Virus record (IMG/VR): IMGVR_UViG_3300028388_004772
Coordinates: 32,001 to 96,000 of that record
Source: a virus
DNA length: 64,000 nt
Strand: one strand, 5' to 3'
The notes beneath the pieces are model-generated. The model saw nothing but the letters and a program-made list of their open reading frames with translations, was not told where the DNA came from and searched no databases. Position numbers and translations under genes: made by a program. Below, one piece after another: positions 13,706 to 45,032 of the stretch (position 1 is the stretch's first letter; each line of letters begins with the position of its first letter).

Positions 13706-14194
13706 TTAAGACCAACCAACACTCAATGTCTTTCTTGGTACTGATCCAAAGTATGGACATATCTTGTGTAAAAGAGACGCGTCAAAAGTCACAATTGTTC
13801 CTTTCTCAGGTTGAATTCTAATTTTGTTATTGGGAAAATTAAATAAGTTGTGATTAAAATATATGTCAAGTTCTCCACCAACCCATTTACTAGTATCATA
13901 GTCGAGAAATAATAAAGTTATCCACTCAGCCTCGTTTTTGTCGTCATGTAACTCCCACAATATACAATCTCGCGAATTTTTATCATAAGTTGGAACACTA
14001 ATAGTATGCGCAAGCACTGGATCCATTAATTTATGAGTTAACCCATATACTTCAGCTTGCAACAATTTTAAAATATAGTGATCACTGAGCTTTTGTAAAA
14101 CGTTATGCCCTTCTCCTTCTTTGAAAGGAAGACATAGTATATCGTCGAGCATCTGCTGAGGTATTGCTTTATGTGATATATTATATTTTTGCAT
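13706..14194 (-). CDS. 2OG-Fe(II) oxygenase (prolyl-hydroxylase-like)
   Basis: LHDD...WVGGELD...GTIVTFD..LLHKI...RKTLSVGW. Confidence 0.8.
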   Translation of the reverse strand: MQKYNISHKAIPQQMLDDILCLPFKEGEGHNVLQKLSDHYILKLLQAEVYGLTHKLMDPVLAHTISVPTYDKNSRDCILWELHDDKNEAEWITLLFLDYDTSKWVGGELDIYFNHNLFNFPNNKIRIQPEKGTIVTFDASLLHKICPYFGSVPRKTLSVGWS

Positions 14195-15749
14195 CGATAT
14201 AATTCTCTAGAATGTCTCGGTTTTCATTCAATATCTTTTGTCCTCTATATTGAATATTGTCACCATTAGGTAAAGTATCCATACTAAATCGATTCTGAGA
14301 TAATAGCGAAGATTTAAGAATAGTGCATAGTGCTATAAATTCTGGAAGTTGATTAAGCCCATTCCATAATGCTTTAATATATGGCGATATTTTTTTAAAA
14401 GACATATACTTGGCCATCCATGTTTTGTCTAATCCTTTACATATCTTATTCATTAGAGTCATTTCAATATAATCGTCTATTGAATACGAATAACATTCGA
14501 CTATTGTTTCATATTCAAGTTTAAGATCTTTATAGATCGTATTATCTAAATCGTCTTGGTGGCCAAAGTTAGGATCCATCTCGTTTGTAACAACGATGGT
14601 CTTGATACCATACTTGTTTTTATACTCTGGGTCTGCCGCTTCTGTAGCTGGCAATATCATATACGGATATCTATTATCGTCCCAATAATTTAGATGATGA
14701 TAAAGATCATATTCTTCGTAAAAATCGCTAATAGTTGAGCCAGGCATTCCCATAATTAACTCAAGATCTATGTAGAAATCTGATGGATCTGTCGCTTCAT
14801 TTTGTATCTCCCGAGCTCTATCTAAGACGTAATATATCTGATCTTTTTTAATATCAATTCGTTTAGCCACTTCTCTGGCTTCGTCTGATATAGACTGAAT
14901 ACTAATCGATATTTGTCTTTTAGACATACCCAATTGAACCATACGTCTTAGTATGTCCAACTTTCTCTCAATATCGAGTGTTTTTAATATTGACAATGAA
15001 TCTCCAACACTCAAATTATATTTTGCAAACAAAGATATTACTTCAAAATCTCTTTCTTTAAACATCCCAGTGTTTGCGTCAGTAAGATCTACGTACATTA
15101 ATTCAAACTGACTTAAGTACCGAAGCTCATCTTCAAATATATTTAAAGGCTTTTTAATTACCTTTATTCCTGTACCACCACCCCATTCGCAATAAGTGCA
15201 CTTAAAAGGGCATCCTCTAGTAGTCTCACCTGAAATTATGATCCGTTCAAAGATGTCAAGGTTTTCTTTAAAATAATAAAAGACTTTTCGAAAATAAGAG
15301 TCGCATCTTTTATATACATTTGTATAGCCGTAAACAAAATTAGTTTTTTTTGGAAGCGAAGGATCAATATAGCGATCAATATAGTTTGTTATAAACAACT
15401 CCCCATATGTTAATGGGTCTGCAGCTACAGTATAGTTTTTAACTATGTCAGAATTGAGATGAGGTCCACCGACTACTGTGATCACATTAGGATCAAGTTG
15501 AGATCTAATATTTTCATTAATTGAATAGTTCCACACATAGTTGCAGAACAACACAATATCGCAGTCTCTTAGATTATCAAGAATCATGTCATAAGTCATA
15601 TGATCCCATTGGTATACTGGTTCGACCCATTCAACTCTATCGTTAAATGCACCATGATCTTCATAGTATGTTTTAAACAACATCCAACTATAATTGAACT
15701 CACTTCGAGAAGCATTACTTGCTGGATTTATGTAGCCGATTTTTAGCAT
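14181..15749 (-). CDS. Cobalamin-binding-type radical SAM protein (class B methyltransferase-like)
   Basis: N-terminal FCNYVWN...VVGGPH domain, ETTRGCPFKCTYCEWG, DAN.G, ELIMGMPG.T. Confidence 0.85.
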   Translation of the reverse strand: MLKIGYINPASNASRSEFNYSWMLFKTYYEDHGAFNDRVEWVEPVYQWDHMTYDMILDNLRDCDIVLFCNYVWNYSINENIRSQLDPNVITVVGGPHLNSDIVKNYTVAADPLTYGELFITNYIDRYIDPSLPKKTNFVYGYTNVYKRCDSYFRKVFYYFKENLDIFERIIISGETTRGCPFKCTYCEWGGGTGIKVIKKPLNIFEDELRYLSQFELMYVDLTDANTGMFKERDFEVISLFAKYNLSVGDSLSILKTLDIERKLDILRRMVQLGMSKRQISISIQSISDEAREVAKRIDIKKDQIYYVLDRAREIQNEATDPSDFYIDLELIMGMPGSTISDFYEEYDLYHHLNYWDDNRYPYMILPATEAADPEYKNKYGIKTIVVTNEMDPNFGHQDDLDNTIYKDLKLEYETIVECYSYSIDDYIEMTLMNKICKGLDKTWMAKYMSFKKISPYIKALWNGLNQLPEFIALCTILKSSLLSQNRFSMDTLPNGDNIQYRGQKILNENRDILENYIDAKI

Positions 15750-40662: not shown

Positions 40663-40670
40663 TATTTATA
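40663..40670 (-). promoter_or_regulatory. T4-type late promoter TATAAATA
   Basis: Exact match upstream of gp48 in the divergent gap. Confidence 0.8.
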
Positions 40671-40677
40671 ATCAAAT

Positions 40678-41181
40678 ATGGCATATTCAGGTAAATACCA
40701 AGTTATCAATCGCGACAAGTATAAAGGCGATCCAGACATGATCGTCTACAGGTCCCTATGGGAAAAATATTGTTTCGTTTGGTGTGACACAAATCCCAAG
40801 GTTAAGGCTTGGAGCTCTGAAGAAATTATTATTCCATACTACTATGATGTAGACAAAAAATATCATCGGTATTTTCCTGATCTGAAAATTGTGACAGAAG
40901 AGAAAACACTTCTTGTTGAAATTAAGCCAGATAAGGAAACAAAACCTCCAACAGGGGAGAGACGGACAAAGCGATACATCAACGAAGGATTGACATACAT
41001 TAAAAATATGAACAAGTGGGAAGCCGCCGAAGAATATTGTAAAGACCGCAGTTGGGAATTTCAGATTTGGACTGAGGATACGTTGATTGAGATGGGATTG
41101 TTGCCAAAAAAGATGCCTGGCAAAATTAAAAAGCCTCTGAAAAGAATGCAGCCATACCGTAAGAAAAAATCTAAAAAATAA
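40678..41181 (+). CDS. gp4: Head completion nuclease gp4
   Basis: MAYSGKY...N..KY.GD...IVYRSLWE; WSSEE..IPY; HRYFPD; EIKP; N..KW.AA. Confidence 0.92.
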   Translation: MAYSGKYQVINRDKYKGDPDMIVYRSLWEKYCFVWCDTNPKVKAWSSEEIIIPYYYDVDKKYHRYFPDLKIVTEEKTLLVEIKPDKETKPPTGERRTKRYINEGLTYIKNMNKWEAAEEYCKDRSWEFQIWTEDTLIEMGLLPKKMPGKIKKPLKRMQPYRKKKSKK

Positions 41182-41182
41182 C

Positions 41183-41190
41183 TATAAATA
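41183..41190 (+). promoter_or_regulatory. T4-type late promoter TATAAATA
   Basis: Exact match just upstream of the gp2 ATG. Confidence 0.75.
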
Positions 41191-41748: not shown

Positions 41749-42396
41749 ATGGCAAACATAAGCGAACTCAAATCACTTGCTTCCGTTACATTTGGTTTTG
41801 CCAGAAGCAATAACTTTCTCGTTGAACTTCCGTCAATCGGAGGTGCTGGAGGATCAAGTTCTAGTCAAAAAAGAGAACTCAATCTTCTTTGTAAAAATGC
41901 GTCCCTCCCTGGCAAGCAAATTTTAACCGTCGATCGTGTTATTGGTATGCAAGCAGAAAAAATTGCATACGGATACGCCGTTCCTCCTATTAATTTGTCA
42001 TTCTATGCTATGAACGATTATTTCATTCGCAAATATTTTGACAGATGGCTAGACTTAATGATGAATGAGGACAATGGGTTGGTGGGATATAAGAAGCCAT
42101 CTGGATACGGTGGATACAGAAGTACAGGTTATGCTGCAGCAATAAAAATTCATCAATTAAGAAAACCTCAGATTGGTATCAATGCTAATGTTGGACCAAT
42201 TCAGATTAACGTTGGGGCAGGTGGAGGTTCAGTATACAGTATTGAGCTCGAAGATGCATTTCCTACTCAAATCAGCGCAGTAGAATTTTCAAATGACTTG
42301 GACGGTCTTGTTGAAGTGAATGTTGAATTTTCATATACGAAGTGGAAGGCAATTCAACCTTCACAAAACTTTATCAATGTAAACGTGGGTGTATAA
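41749..42396 (+). CDS. gp54: Baseplate tail-tube initiator (gp54 / tail tube family)
   Basis: GFARSN.F.V; LC..ASLPG; L.DAFP..I; V.FSY..W. Confidence 0.75.
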   Translation: MANISELKSLASVTFGFARSNNFLVELPSIGGAGGSSSSQKRELNLLCKNASLPGKQILTVDRVIGMQAEKIAYGYAVPPINLSFYAMNDYFIRKYFDRWLDLMMNEDNGLVGYKKPSGYGGYRSTGYAAAIKIHQLRKPQIGINANVGPIQINVGAGGGSVYSIELEDAFPTQISAVEFSNDLDGLVEVNVEFSYTKWKAIQPSQNFINVNVGV

Positions 42397-42406
42397 TGGA
42401 GAAATT

Positions 42407-43117
42407 ATGGCTATACCATCACTAAATTCGTCACCAAAGTATACGGTACAAATTCCGTCAACAGGTGATACGGTAAGGTTCCGACCTTTCCTTGTTAAAG
42501 AACAAAAGGTCTTGTTGTTGGCTTATGAGTCACAAGACAAGAAACAAATTATTGGTGCAATCCTCGATACAATCAAATCGTGTGTTGAGGAAGACATTGA
42601 TGTCTATCAATTGGCTACCTTTGATGTGGATTATTTGTTTACTCAGATCAGAGCAAAGTCGGTTGGTGAGAAAGTAGATATTGGATTGAAGTGTAGTCAT
42701 TGTGAGACTCAAAACAACCTTGATATCAATCTTGAGGATGTCAAAATTGAGGGTAAGAAAGAGTCTAGTGTGATCAAGCTTACTGACGATATTTCAATTA
42801 AAATGAAATATCCTAACTATGAAAAGTTCATGAAGAACAATGATATCTTTGAATCGAAGACATCGACTGATATCATTATGAACATCATCATAGCAAGCAT
42901 CGAATCGATTATGACAGAAGAAGAAAATGTACTTGCTGCAGATGAGAGTGCTGAAGACCTAATGAACTTTGTTGAGTCAATGACCGCAGCTCAGTTCCAA
43001 AAGGTATCAGACTTTATGGAAGATATGCCAACAATGAAGTTGGATGTGGACTTTAAGTGTGTAAACTGTGGGGAAGATAACACAGTAACATTACAGGGGA
43101 TTGACGATTTTTTTTAA
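42407..43117 (+). CDS. gp26: Baseplate hub assembly protein gp26 (start refined to MAIPSL)
   Basis: P.Y...IPSTG..V.FRPFLVKEQK.LL.A; FD.DYLF..IRAKSVGE; two CxxC; ends G.DDFF; GGAG SD before ATG 42407. Confidence 0.88.
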   Translation: MAIPSLNSSPKYTVQIPSTGDTVRFRPFLVKEQKVLLLAYESQDKKQIIGAILDTIKSCVEEDIDVYQLATFDVDYLFTQIRAKSVGEKVDIGLKCSHCETQNNLDINLEDVKIEGKKESSVIKLTDDISIKMKYPNYEKFMKNNDIFESKTSTDIIMNIIIASIESIMTEEENVLAADESAEDLMNFVESMTAAQFQKVSDFMEDMPTMKLDVDFKCVNCGEDNTVTLQGIDDFF

Positions 43118-43299
43118 TAAGTCTCTCTCATGAATCGCTGGAAAACTATTTTAAGACAAACTTCCAGCTGTTGCAGAATTTTCATTATTCTCTACATGAG
43201 ATCGAAGATATGATCCCTTGGGAGAGAGAAATTTACTTAACGATGTTGATTACTGACATCCAAGAAAAGAACGAAAGGGCACAACAGGGAATGCAATAA
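43108..43299 (+). CDS. gp51: gp51-like reading frame without its own start; probably expressed as a -1 frameshift extension of gp26
   Basis: Manual translation FFLISLSHESLENYFKTNFQLLQNFHYSLHEIEDMIPWEREIYLTMLITDIQEKNERAQQGMQ*; frame opens after TGA at 43102; first ATG only at 43210. Confidence 0.8.
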   Translation, partial: FFLISLSHESLENYFKTNFQLLQNFHYSLHEIEDMIPWEREIYLTMLITDIQEKNERAQQGMQ

Positions 43300-45032
43300 T
43301 GGCAATAACTCTTGCTGATGTAAAAGAACAATTAGTCAAGCAGAACGAGCTCCAGGAAGAACAGAACAATCTTTCTGCAGCTCAGGCTGGGGCTATTGCT
43401 GGGATGGCCAGTGATCTATCTTCTCTAATTAATACCTTTAAGTCTGATCAAATGGATCAGCTTGAGGCTGATCGGGAAAAACGAGCAGAAGAACGTAGGG
43501 CAGTGAAAAGCACTACACCCAAGGCAGACAGCAACAAAGGACTTTTTGACTTTTTGCCACAAGGTGGTCTATTTGGTTTAGGTGCAGCATTAGCTTCACA
43601 ATTACCTAAATTTCTTTTAGGGCGGGCCCTCCCAGCAATTCTTGCAAAAATGTTTGCAGATGAAATTGCTGACTATGTTGAGTCAGCCACAGGCAGTAAA
43701 GCTTTAGGAGATGCTATCTTCAGGGGCCTCAATCTTGGTGCCCTAGGATTGCTTCTTGGCAAAAAGTTCGGAGCAATTGGTTTCATTGCCGGTGTATTGT
43801 TAGATGCAGGTAACAGAGCTAAACTTGATCAGCTCGGTGATACGTTGGCCTCGTTTGGCGATAATTTAGCCAAGATGTTTGGATTAGATGGATTGCCAAC
43901 CTTTAATGAGGCCTTTAAATTTGTCACAGATACGTTTGGTAAGGCAATAGACTTCTTAATATCTGGTACCACATATTTAAGCAATCTAATGAAGAACGAC
44001 AAGACTTCAGAAGATCTCGAAAAAATGAATGAGGACTTGGATATCTTAGGTGAAAATTGGGATGACTTTGGAATCGCGATTGCTGGTCTTGCTGTAATGT
44101 TTAGACCGTTAGGTACAGTAAGCTTGATATTGAAAACAATAGCAGCTCCATTTAAGATGGCATATAATGGACTTAAAGGATTAGCTGGTCTGGTTCTTGG
44201 TGGTACGGCCATTAAAGAGTTTGGTAAAACCCAGATGGGTGAAATGACCAAAGGTCAATTGCAAAGAATGAATACCGAGCAGATCAAAGGGATGTCTGCA
44301 GCCGATATTAAAAAATTAGAAGGTGAAGGGTATAACGTCAATCAAAAGACCGGCGCTGTTACAAATCTCAAAGGACAAACCGTATCAGCTGATCAGGTTC
44401 GTGGCTCTATGTCCCGACTGGGTATGGAGAATCCATTAAACCAAGCTGCAGCTAAAAAATATAGCAGATTCGGAAAACTCCTTAAAGTTGGTAAAAGTAT
44501 ACCATTCCTCGGGAGCTTATTATCAGCTGGATATCTTGGGGCAATCCTACTGAGTGATGCCTCCGACGAAGAAAAAATAAAAACAATCGGCGGACTATTT
44601 GGTGGTGTTGCCGGTTCATTGGCCCTTGCTACAATTGGTGCGGGCGCAGGTCCATTCGGCGCAATTGCTGGAGCAATCGGTGGTGGATTGGGAGGGGATC
44701 TATTGGGTCAGTGGTTTGCTGGATGGTTAATGAATAATAACAGCAAACAAGCTGGTAGTGAAAGTGTTGGGGATTATGGTGAATTTGGTAATTTAGGTAA
44801 CGACCTGAGTGCACCAACTTCCCAAGCATCCGCTCCATATGCACCTATGTCAGGAACAATACTAAGAGATGTTGCAGATCAAAGTGTTGCAATGCAGAAT
44901 ACATCAGGTGGTGTTAATATGCTCGACACTAGTGATAAGAGCGTTACTGTGAATAACAGTAGCGGGGTAACCTTGGCAGGACCAATGGGTACCCCTTTTG
45001 ATACTTACAACAAGTATGTACTGTACGCTTAG
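43299..45032 (+). CDS. Probable tape measure / baseplate hub protein (gp29-like), 577 aa
   Basis: Follows gp26/gp51; coiled-coil N-terminus and Gly/Ala-rich hydrophobic helices. Confidence 0.6.
   Translation: MAITLADVKEQLVKQNELQEEQNNLSAAQAGAIAGMASDLSSLINTFKSDQMDQLEADREKRAEERRAVKSTTPKADSNKGLFDFLPQGGLFGLGAALASQLPKFLLGRALPAILAKMFADEIADYVESATGSKALGDAIFRGLNLGALGLLLGKKFGAIGFIAGVLLDAGNRAKLDQLGDTLASFGDNLAKMFGLDGLPTFNEAFKFVTDTFGKAIDFLISGTTYLSNLMKNDKTSEDLEKMNEDLDILGENWDDFGIAIAGLAVMFRPLGTVSLILKTIAAPFKMAYNGLKGLAGLVLGGTAIKEFGKTQMGEMTKGQLQRMNTEQIKGMSAADIKKLEGEGYNVNQKTGAVTNLKGQTVSADQVRGSMSRLGMENPLNQAAAKKYSRFGKLLKVGKSIPFLGSLLSAGYLGAILLSDASDEEKIKTIGGLFGGVAGSLALATIGAGAGPFGAIAGAIGGGLGGDLLGQWFAGWLMNNNSKQAGSESVGDYGEFGNLGNDLSAPTSQASAPYAPMSGTILRDVADQSVAMQNTSGGVNMLDTSDKSVTVNNSSGVTLAGPMGTPFDTYNKYVLYA

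Follow-up and report, generated by a model that had tools for sequence, protein, structure and literature searches.

A putative -1 frameshift in gene 26 of an uncultured marine T4-like phage, predicted to join gp26 to a start-less gp51-like domain

The T4 proteins gp26 and gp51 are both listed as hub assembly chaperones (Leiman et al., 2010; PMC3004832), and the gp51 of cyanophages and marine vibriophages was found to be without its first ~200 residues, a loss left unexplained in that report (Sullivan et al., 2010; PMC3037559). The database record of KVP40 likewise notes similarity to the gp51 C-terminus. The same puzzle is posed by the DNA analysed here, a 64-kilobase (kb) stretch, hereafter the window, from an uncultured marine T4-like phage (positions 32,001 to 96,000 of IMG/VR record IMGVR_UViG_3300028388_004772; the whole record is 141 kb and ~84% complete). 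In this window, a gp51-like reading frame emerges in the -1 phase from beneath the end of gene 26 and is conserved as protein before any start codon is reached, which raises the question of how this domain is translated, and as part of which protein. The features that define the locus are the following.

42407..43117, + strand: gp26 homologue of 236 amino acids (aa), the short form of the tail (baseplate-hub) assembly chaperone (PF12322, phrog_150, BLASTP match to T4 gp26).
43105-43299, + strand: gp51-like -1 open reading frame (ORF) of 64 codons, opened after the TGA at 43102-43104.
43108..43114, + strand: slippery heptamer T TTT TTT, X XXY YYZ in the gp26 frame, the proposed -1 slip site (sequence and conservation).
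43115..43117, + strand: zero-frame stop codon TAA abutting the heptamer, a possible 'shifty stop' context, whose T is the eighth T of the run.
43114..43299, + strand: gp51-like extension read after the slip, 61 codons from TTA 43114, with its stop at 43297-43299 (phrog_634, phrog_150, T4 gp51).

The gene upstream of the junction can be identified with confidence. It begins at an ATG (42407) with a GGAG 7 nucleotides (nt) upstream, its homologues begin MALP, and its product belongs to the family PF12322 (T4_baseplate), matching positions 2-218 of the 219-position profile at 5.1e-62. It also matches phrog_150 (8.9e-68) and T4 gp26 (BLASTP, 2e-14 over 227 residues). Homologues are 221-238 aa long in all of the best 120 of 2388, and the gp26 stop falls at the same place in all of these. 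Four cysteines, C96, C99, C218 and C221, are invariant, and in the predicted structure they bring two distant hairpins together in a zinc-ribbon-like unit. Several gp26 homologues have been named 'ribosomal protein L44E' by the Joint Genome Institute, probably a mis-annotation caused by this four-cysteine ribbon.

At its 3′ end the gene reads GGG ATT GAC GAT TTT TTT TAA, and a second TAA (43118-43120) follows the first. The eight T residues at 43108-43115 include a heptamer decoded wholly by tRNA-Phe, and the -1 frame is shut two codons ahead of the run by the TGA at 43102-43104. A preliminary description of this DNA had proposed just this anatomy, with gp26 closing on a run of eight T and a -1 frame that opens only after the TGA and whose end overlaps the next gene in a TAATG, and direct reading confirmed each of these elements. 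Elsewhere in the coding sequence of the window a homopolymer of eight occurs just once, as a T8 on the + strand at 15344-15351, which is an A8 in the mRNA of a 522-aa minus-strand ORF (14181-15749).

The -1 frame reads R F F L I S L S H E S L E N Y F K T N F ... M I P W E R E I Y ... Q, and its stop codon reaches one base into the ATG of the following gene. The first canonical starts within it are TTG 43171 and ATG 43210, both of which lie inside the region conserved as protein; the gp51-like motif does precede the two of them, as had been proposed. The ORF matches phrog_634 (gp51, baseplate hub assembly catalyst) at 2e-23 over profile positions 56-114 of 121 only, and thus carries the C-terminal domain of that family, and BLASTP aligns it with residues 200-249 of T4 gp51 (2e-5). 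A further match (2.4e-7) is to the C-terminal 50 positions of phrog_150, the profile of the gp26 family, and hints that in some members of this family a gp51-like domain stands in frame. An exhaustive phmmer search returned 608 relatives, mostly called as ORFs of 50-85 aa. In the 141-kb record the gp26 gene and the gp51-like domain each occur once, and a separate gene for a long form was not found.

The position and phase of this frame are highly conserved. We read the junction, which has 46 distinct versions, in 85 loci: the window itself, 80 IMG/VR contigs and four phages that are cultured or in GenBank. In 85/85 loci the gp51-like frame lies at -1 and the T run stands at the same codon, as T8 in 81 and as TTTTTTC in the other four. 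A stop codon directly follows the run in 76/85, and the gp26 stops are TAA in 44 loci, TAG in 26 and TGA in 15. The -1 frame is closed 0-1 codons upstream of the run in 54/85 loci, a canonical start occurs 5′ of the Phe-Phe pair in only two, and the first downstream start in the gp51 frame drifts between codon 2 and codon 34. Relatives therefore share no independent gp51 start, since the start moves from locus to locus and the phase stays fixed at -1. The same site and phase recur in two additional contigs and in six cultured phages that are more distant, as T TTT TTC in P-SSM2, KVP40, S-RSM4 and contig L096, as T TTT TTT in phiM7, pf16 and contig L095, and as T TTT TTG in RHph_I1_9. The slippery heptamer, which fits the X XXY YYZ pattern as the preliminary description had stated, and its -1 phase are both retained across the relatives.

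Searched by tblastn, the -1 ORF matches 567 phage records, which include cyanophages, KVP40-like vibriophages, rhizobiophages, Pseudomonas phage pf16, and Pelagibacter and Methylophilales phages. These matches nearly always begin at query residue 1-2 and run beneath the annotated end of gp26. Homology of the -1 peptide begins at the Phe-Phe shared with gp26, and the peptide is conserved from its first residue; the zero-frame tail beyond the site comprises 0 to 8 codons and is unconserved.

Codon usage at the junction shows that selection acts on the nucleotides of the site, beyond the Phe-Phe that they encode. In an ungapped alignment of 40 distinct junctions, the codon preceding Phe-Phe ends in T in 40/40 (GAT 37, AAT 2, CAT 1), and the neighbouring Asp column is divided between GAC (15) and GAT (10). 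The first Phe is TTT in 40/40 and the second in 36/40, against a TTT share of 65% among Phe codons in the genes of the window. T4 serves as a negative control, as its gp26 gene has no gp51 frame behind it, and there the Phe-Phe is kept as GAG TTC TTT, which is not slippery.

A split between two frames at a homopolymer might also be an artefact, either an error of sequencing or assembly that has broken an in-frame gene or the mark of a decaying pseudogene. Homopolymer runs are error-prone, and a few database proteins are in-frame or garbled at the junction (P0162, P0184 and P0237). However, at least 120 independently assembled IMG/VR contigs carry the pattern GA-T8-V-N6-CTCTCTCAYGA, and neither its nine-T nor its seven-T version was found in IMG/VR contigs, which excludes an assembly error; the ninth T that would have turned the two frames into a simple in-frame fusion is accordingly not seen. 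Two contigs from other assemblies, L005 and L006, match the window junction from the Asp-Asp codons through the T8 and downstream, with a few synonymous differences further upstream. Together with the constant place of the gp26 stop and the clear protein-level conservation in both frames, these observations leave an artefact with next to no probability.

If the two frames are read as one protein, the product should resemble proteins in which the gp26 and gp51 domains are already joined, and such proteins exist. T4 gp51 (249 aa) aligns over residues 15-190 with T4 gp26 (BLASTP, 2e-6) and with the gp26 of the window (6e-5), and hhalign of the gp26 profile to T4 gp51 gives a probability of 82% (E 1e-5). 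T4 gp51 thus consists of a gp26-like body followed by a tail homologous to the -1 ORF, and represents a stand-alone equivalent of the predicted long form. A database protein of 270 aa, P0205, is a complete in-frame gp26-51, with residues 10-211 corresponding to gp26 (9e-29) and residues 210-269 to the -1 ORF, and the two parts meet (...S E W F V I C L A H D...) at the position expected from the slip. Its predicted fold (predicted local distance difference test, pLDDT, 86) comprises a lower-confidence linker at residues 208-219 and helices at 220-233, 239-242 and 246-269. P0162 and P0181 are partial in-frame examples. A scan of viral contigs for the DNA of P0205 gave only two ordinary split loci. 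For the gp51 domain of the window, only the putative slip would supply a gp26-like body on the same polypeptide.

These observations are consistent with a model in which gene 26 is a recoded tail (baseplate-hub) assembly chaperone gene that specifies two proteins from one start. Most ribosomes would read GAT TTT TTT and end at the TAA, yielding the 236-aa gp26. Some would slip back by one base with tRNA-Phe on U UUU UUU, either through re-pairing of both tRNAs on UUU UUU or through re-pairing of the P-site tRNA-Phe alone while the stop codon occupies the A site. The slipped ribosomes would then read UUA AUA AGU ... and add 61 residues, giving a 297-aa gp26-51 whose predicted junction peptide is ...GIDDFFLISLSHESLENYFK. 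The short and long forms would correspond to G and GT of lambda, to E and E+E' of P2, and to gp26 and gp51 of T4. We estimate the probability that recoding yields the gp26-51 fusion at roughly 0.9, and the probability that the fusion arises by a ribosomal -1 slip at roughly 0.75.

Several observations limit this reading, or parts of it. The first concerns the chaperone fold, which structure comparison favours, although with modest scores. An AlphaFold2 model of gp26 built with 45 homologues (pLDDT 83) was compared by VIA-align with 48,161 representative chains, and the top three matches were 3fgx_B (Z 6.7, 87 residues aligned), 3klu_A (YqbN; Z 5.8) and 2ob9_B (Z 5.8), all falling on residues 1-96 of the model. 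Of these, 2ob9 is the tail assembly chaperone (TAC) of HK97, and 3fgx and 3klu were reportedly assigned to the same chaperone family by Pell and colleagues in 2013. These scores are modest and lie below the caution level of the method (Z 7-8), and they are therefore supportive of a chaperone fold and not conclusive. Foldseek returned nothing in the PDB for the gp26 model at E <= 0.001, with 2ob9 at rank 20, and the gp26 profile had no match among PDB sequences. By the VIA-align comparison, the N-terminal part of gp26 is predicted to resemble solved tail assembly chaperones.

The second concerns RNA structure. RNAalifold predicted 0 pairs in a conserved structure downstream of the slip site across 40 junctions, and the single sequence of the window folds no better than its shuffles (z -1.4 and -1.1). 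Third, the T run, like a purine tract upstream of it, is partly accounted for at the level of protein, by conservation of the Phe-Phe and x-Gly residues. Fourth, KVP40, RHph_I1_9, phiM7 and P-SSM2 have an ATG 3-5 codons after the site, and such distant relatives could make a free small gp51 by coupled re-initiation. Finally, the same fusion could originate in transcription, if RNA polymerase were to stutter on the T8 and add one U in a fraction of transcripts; translation of the resulting U9 mRNA would give the same gp26-51. Since the protein product is identical, ribosomal and transcriptional slippage are inseparable by sequence.

The ATG codons near the gp26 stop lead to a different interpretation, namely that two separate proteins are made, gp26 terminating normally and a free gp51 of ~60 aa being initiated at a non-canonical or re-initiation codon near the stop, with no fusion formed. 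Databases do annotate gp51 as a separate small gene, in several distant relatives an ATG occurs no more than 3-5 codons from the end of gp26, in some cases overlapping the stop as TAATG or TGATG, and in some lineages an ATG lies 13 codons upstream in the -1 frame. In the window, however, the -1 frame is closed by the TGA and offers only TTA, ATA, AGT and so on up to the TTG at codon 23, inside the conserved domain. The rarity of upstream starts among the 85 loci and the unconserved positions of the downstream ones also tell against separate initiation. Many 'gp51' ORF calls (75-83 aa; database proteins P0124-P0170) begin 'MW' 13 codons before the Phe-Phe, and their first 13 residues are unconserved; these starts are probably gene-caller artefacts, because the conserved x-Cys-Gly codons of gp26, when read at -1, give ATG-TGG. 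Separate initiation would in addition leave unexplained the fixed -1 phase, the T in the wobble position before the run and the choice of TTT, and T4 gp51 and P0205 show that the domain works joined to a gp26 body. We consider the production of two unfused proteins to be very improbable.

The choice between ribosome and polymerase turns on the length of the run and on its surroundings. The marine clade keeps eight T, one more than the heptamer needs, and the eighth is retained even in the five loci in which TCA or TCC, and not a stop codon, follows; this would suit a stuttering polymerase, as would the failure to find a conserved RNA stimulator. Where a stop codon abuts T TTT TTT, on the other hand, the eighth T is automatic, since every stop codon begins with T. 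The sites of many relatives consist of six T followed by C or G, proper X XXY YYZ heptamers, and six T are too short a run for efficient polymerase slippage, so that these sites argue for the ribosome. Runs of T8 or A8 are not strictly avoided elsewhere in the window, where 3 were found against 6.6 +/- 2.5 expected, a deficit that is not decisive with respect to polymerase slippage. The SD (Shine-Dalgarno)-like character of the purine tract 5′ of the run also points to the ribosome, and its spacing from the slip site resembles that in dnaX. On balance we regard transcriptional slippage as unlikely and favour a slip by the ribosome.

Two elements flank the heptamer, the first of which is a candidate stimulator of such a ribosomal slip.

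43095..43100, + strand: SD-like purine tract AGGGGA, 7 nt before the T run (predicted anti-SD duplex of -6.5 kcal/mol).
43123..43133, + strand: conserved CTCTCTCATGA, 8 nt after the heptamer (synonymous-site conservation; CTCTCTCAYGA in relatives).

The AGGGGA tract ranks in the top 1.5% of anti-SD windows within the gp26 gene, and the corresponding median for 47 relatives is the top 1.0%. In relatives the tract lies 5-12 nt upstream of the run, and it takes the form GGAGG in 17/47. It overlaps the conserved x-Gly codons and is for this reason not independent evidence. The tract and the abutting stop codon could both raise the efficiency of slipping, but they are no more than suggestive.

Downstream of the heptamer, CTC, the rarest Leu codon of the phage at 7% of Leu codons in the genes of the window, is nevertheless the Leu codon of CTCTCTCATGA in 38/40 relatives, and the Ser codon of this element is TCT in 31/38. 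The element is under constraint at the nucleotide level, and neither a helix nor an overlapping frame accounts for it. A helix between the purine tract and the CTCTCT element was considered and rejected, as it is no better than slid controls. A 5-bp hairpin 9 nt after the heptamer was likewise set aside: it is 74.5% paired, compared with 37-57% for slid controls, but it shows no covariation and is imperfect in the window. The T8 with its abutting stop codon and conserved pyrimidine element offers a simple, structure-free candidate recoding site. In the marine clade, the combination of a U8 abutting the stop and a CUCUCUCAYGA with no detectable helix might represent a linear 3′ stimulator of a new kind, or a switch to RNA-polymerase slippage, an idea that we put forward tentatively and hold to be rather improbable. 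We know of no tail chaperone gene for which RNA-polymerase slippage has been shown.

Around the junction, the operon on the + strand runs gp4-like, gp2-like, tail-tube-like, gp26, -1 ORF and a 577-aa protein, after which gp32 lies on the opposite strand. The genes that border the chaperone region are these.

41749..42396, + strand: tail-tube-like gene of 215 aa (phrog_45 'tail tube', 6.3e-35; weak match to PF23849 Phage_TTP_2).
43299..45032, + strand: 577-aa gene in the position of gp29, encoding a probable tape-measure/hub protein (position, size, weak matches).

The tail-tube-like gene adjoins gp26 on its 5′ side, which is the tube-before-chaperone order of other long-tailed phages. The identity of the gene on the 3′ side, which had been described as tape-measure-like, is supported by its position, by its length, near that of T4 gp29 (590 aa), by weak matches (1e-9 to 2e-6) to PHROG families of tail lysins and tape measures and by an Atlas lead to a T4_Tape_measure cluster (score 0.90). 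The protein also has glycine-zipper-like hydrophobic stretches. Family membership did not stand, as a search of the whole 141-kb record with PF25671 (T4 tape measure gp29) gave no match at E <= 1, nor did direct similarity, as BLASTP found none between the 577-aa protein and T4 gp29 (E 0.03). The lack of a PF25671 match implies that this lineage has either a highly diverged tape measure or one from a different family, and 'tape-measure-like' is a reasonable but weakly founded name based on position, size and weak matches.

The run of genes from gp2 to the tape-measure gene looks like one late transcript. Late-promoter-like TATAAATA occurs on the + strand at 41183-41190, just 5′ of the gp2-like gene, and is on this strand the nearest such site to the junction; another copy lies on the - strand at 40663-40670, just 5′ of a gp48-like gene. 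No promoter- or terminator-like site was found at the gp26/gp51 junction itself. The window contains no phage tRNA-Phe or tRNA-Leu that might tune the slip, its only tRNA genes being for tRNA-Cys and tRNA-Arg. The gp4-like head completion protein (40678-41181) matches PF08722, a TnsA-like endonuclease N-terminal domain, at 4.5e-18.

How the proposed arrangement relates to tail chaperone genes elsewhere is best seen by starting with T4 itself. T4 gp26 (208 aa) and gp51 (249 aa) are members of the same families as the gp26 and the -1 ORF of the window. As predicted for the window, T4 has a short form and a long one in which the same body is followed by a helical tail at the C-terminus, in a neighbourhood of tube, hub and tape-measure genes. 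In T4, however, the two forms are separate, divergently transcribed genes, and gene 26 ends without a T run (TTC TTT), whereas in the window one gene and a -1 ORF must supply both forms.

A parallel in arrangement is found in another contractile-tailed phage, P2, in which the short gene, E, contains close to its 3′ end a T TTT TTG heptamer where a -1 slip yields the long form E+E' (annotated in NC_001895). The end of the P2 long form overlaps the tape measure gene T, as the extension in the window overlaps the 577-aa gene, and the gp26 heptamer of RHph_I1_9 is identical to that of P2. P2 E differs in that it has 91 aa and neither a zinc-ribbon nor a middle domain, and its slip site lies ~20 nt before the stop of E, whereas in the window the stop abuts the heptamer.

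The wider comparison is with lambda G/GT and its counterparts in long-tailed phages, in which two forms are made from overlapping frames between the tube and tape measure genes through a -1 shift on X XXY YYZ. This conserved tail-assembly frameshift was reportedly described by Levin and colleagues in 1993 and by Xu, Hendrix and Duda in 2004. The lambda heptamer is G GGA AAG. A -1 ORF that lacks a start and is entered from an X XXY YYZ heptamer close to the end of a short gene, the mark of a tail chaperone pair, is present in the window, and of its expected position between tube and tape measure genes the tube side is clear (phrog_45), while on the other side the 577-aa gene has only weak tape-measure and lysin matches. 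Unlike lambda G, gp26 is a larger protein (236 aa) with a four-cysteine ribbon, and the T4-like chaperones act on the baseplate hub. The part of gp26 shared by both forms is predicted to have a TAC-like fold, with 2ob9 of HK97 matching at a modest Z of 5.8. The architecture of T4 gp51, this predicted chaperone-like N-terminal domain and the slip of P2 together support the proposal of the preliminary description that gp26 and gp26-51 are the equivalents of G and GT. If so, T4-like phages follow the rule of long-tailed phages that a short and a long tail chaperone come from one region, and the fusion would account for the 200 N-terminal residues that seem 'missing' from gp51 in marine T4-like phages.

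A comparison outside the phages is provided by E. coli dnaX, in which gamma and tau are produced with a -1 slip on a homopolymer-type heptamer, with the help of an internal SD-like tract ~10 nt upstream. The purine tract found 5-12 nt upstream of the homopolymer heptamer in the window and its relatives is dnaX-like in this sense. The dnaX site also uses a strong downstream stem-loop, and its slip shortens the protein; at the junction described here a downstream stem-loop is not conserved, and the predicted slip lengthens the protein.

In practical terms, the consequence of the proposed fusion is for the annotation of the long form. In every database record examined, gp51 is listed as a truncated gene of 34-59 residues or is omitted, with no joined coding sequence, as had been anticipated; the P2 record, by comparison, does carry a joined coding sequence for E+E'. 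The tail assembly chaperones of T4-like phages were identified as these same genes by Vladimirov, Gautam and Davidson (Virology, 2022), as far as their work is represented in the passages of two later papers that cite it (PMC10885494, PMC12846349). In its remarks on that study, the PRFect paper states that T4-like phages carry one short gene and one longer fusion gene (PMC10885494), and a 2025 paper refers to it in describing 'polyT-containing sequences' as -1 signals already known 'in TAC-N genes of T4-like phages' (PMC12846349). To judge from these passages, the chaperone identity has already been published, and apparently so has the poly-T signal. The locus in the window is a well-supported new example of this known kind, distinguished by a clade-specific signal that consists of a T8, an abutting stop codon and a pyrimidine element.

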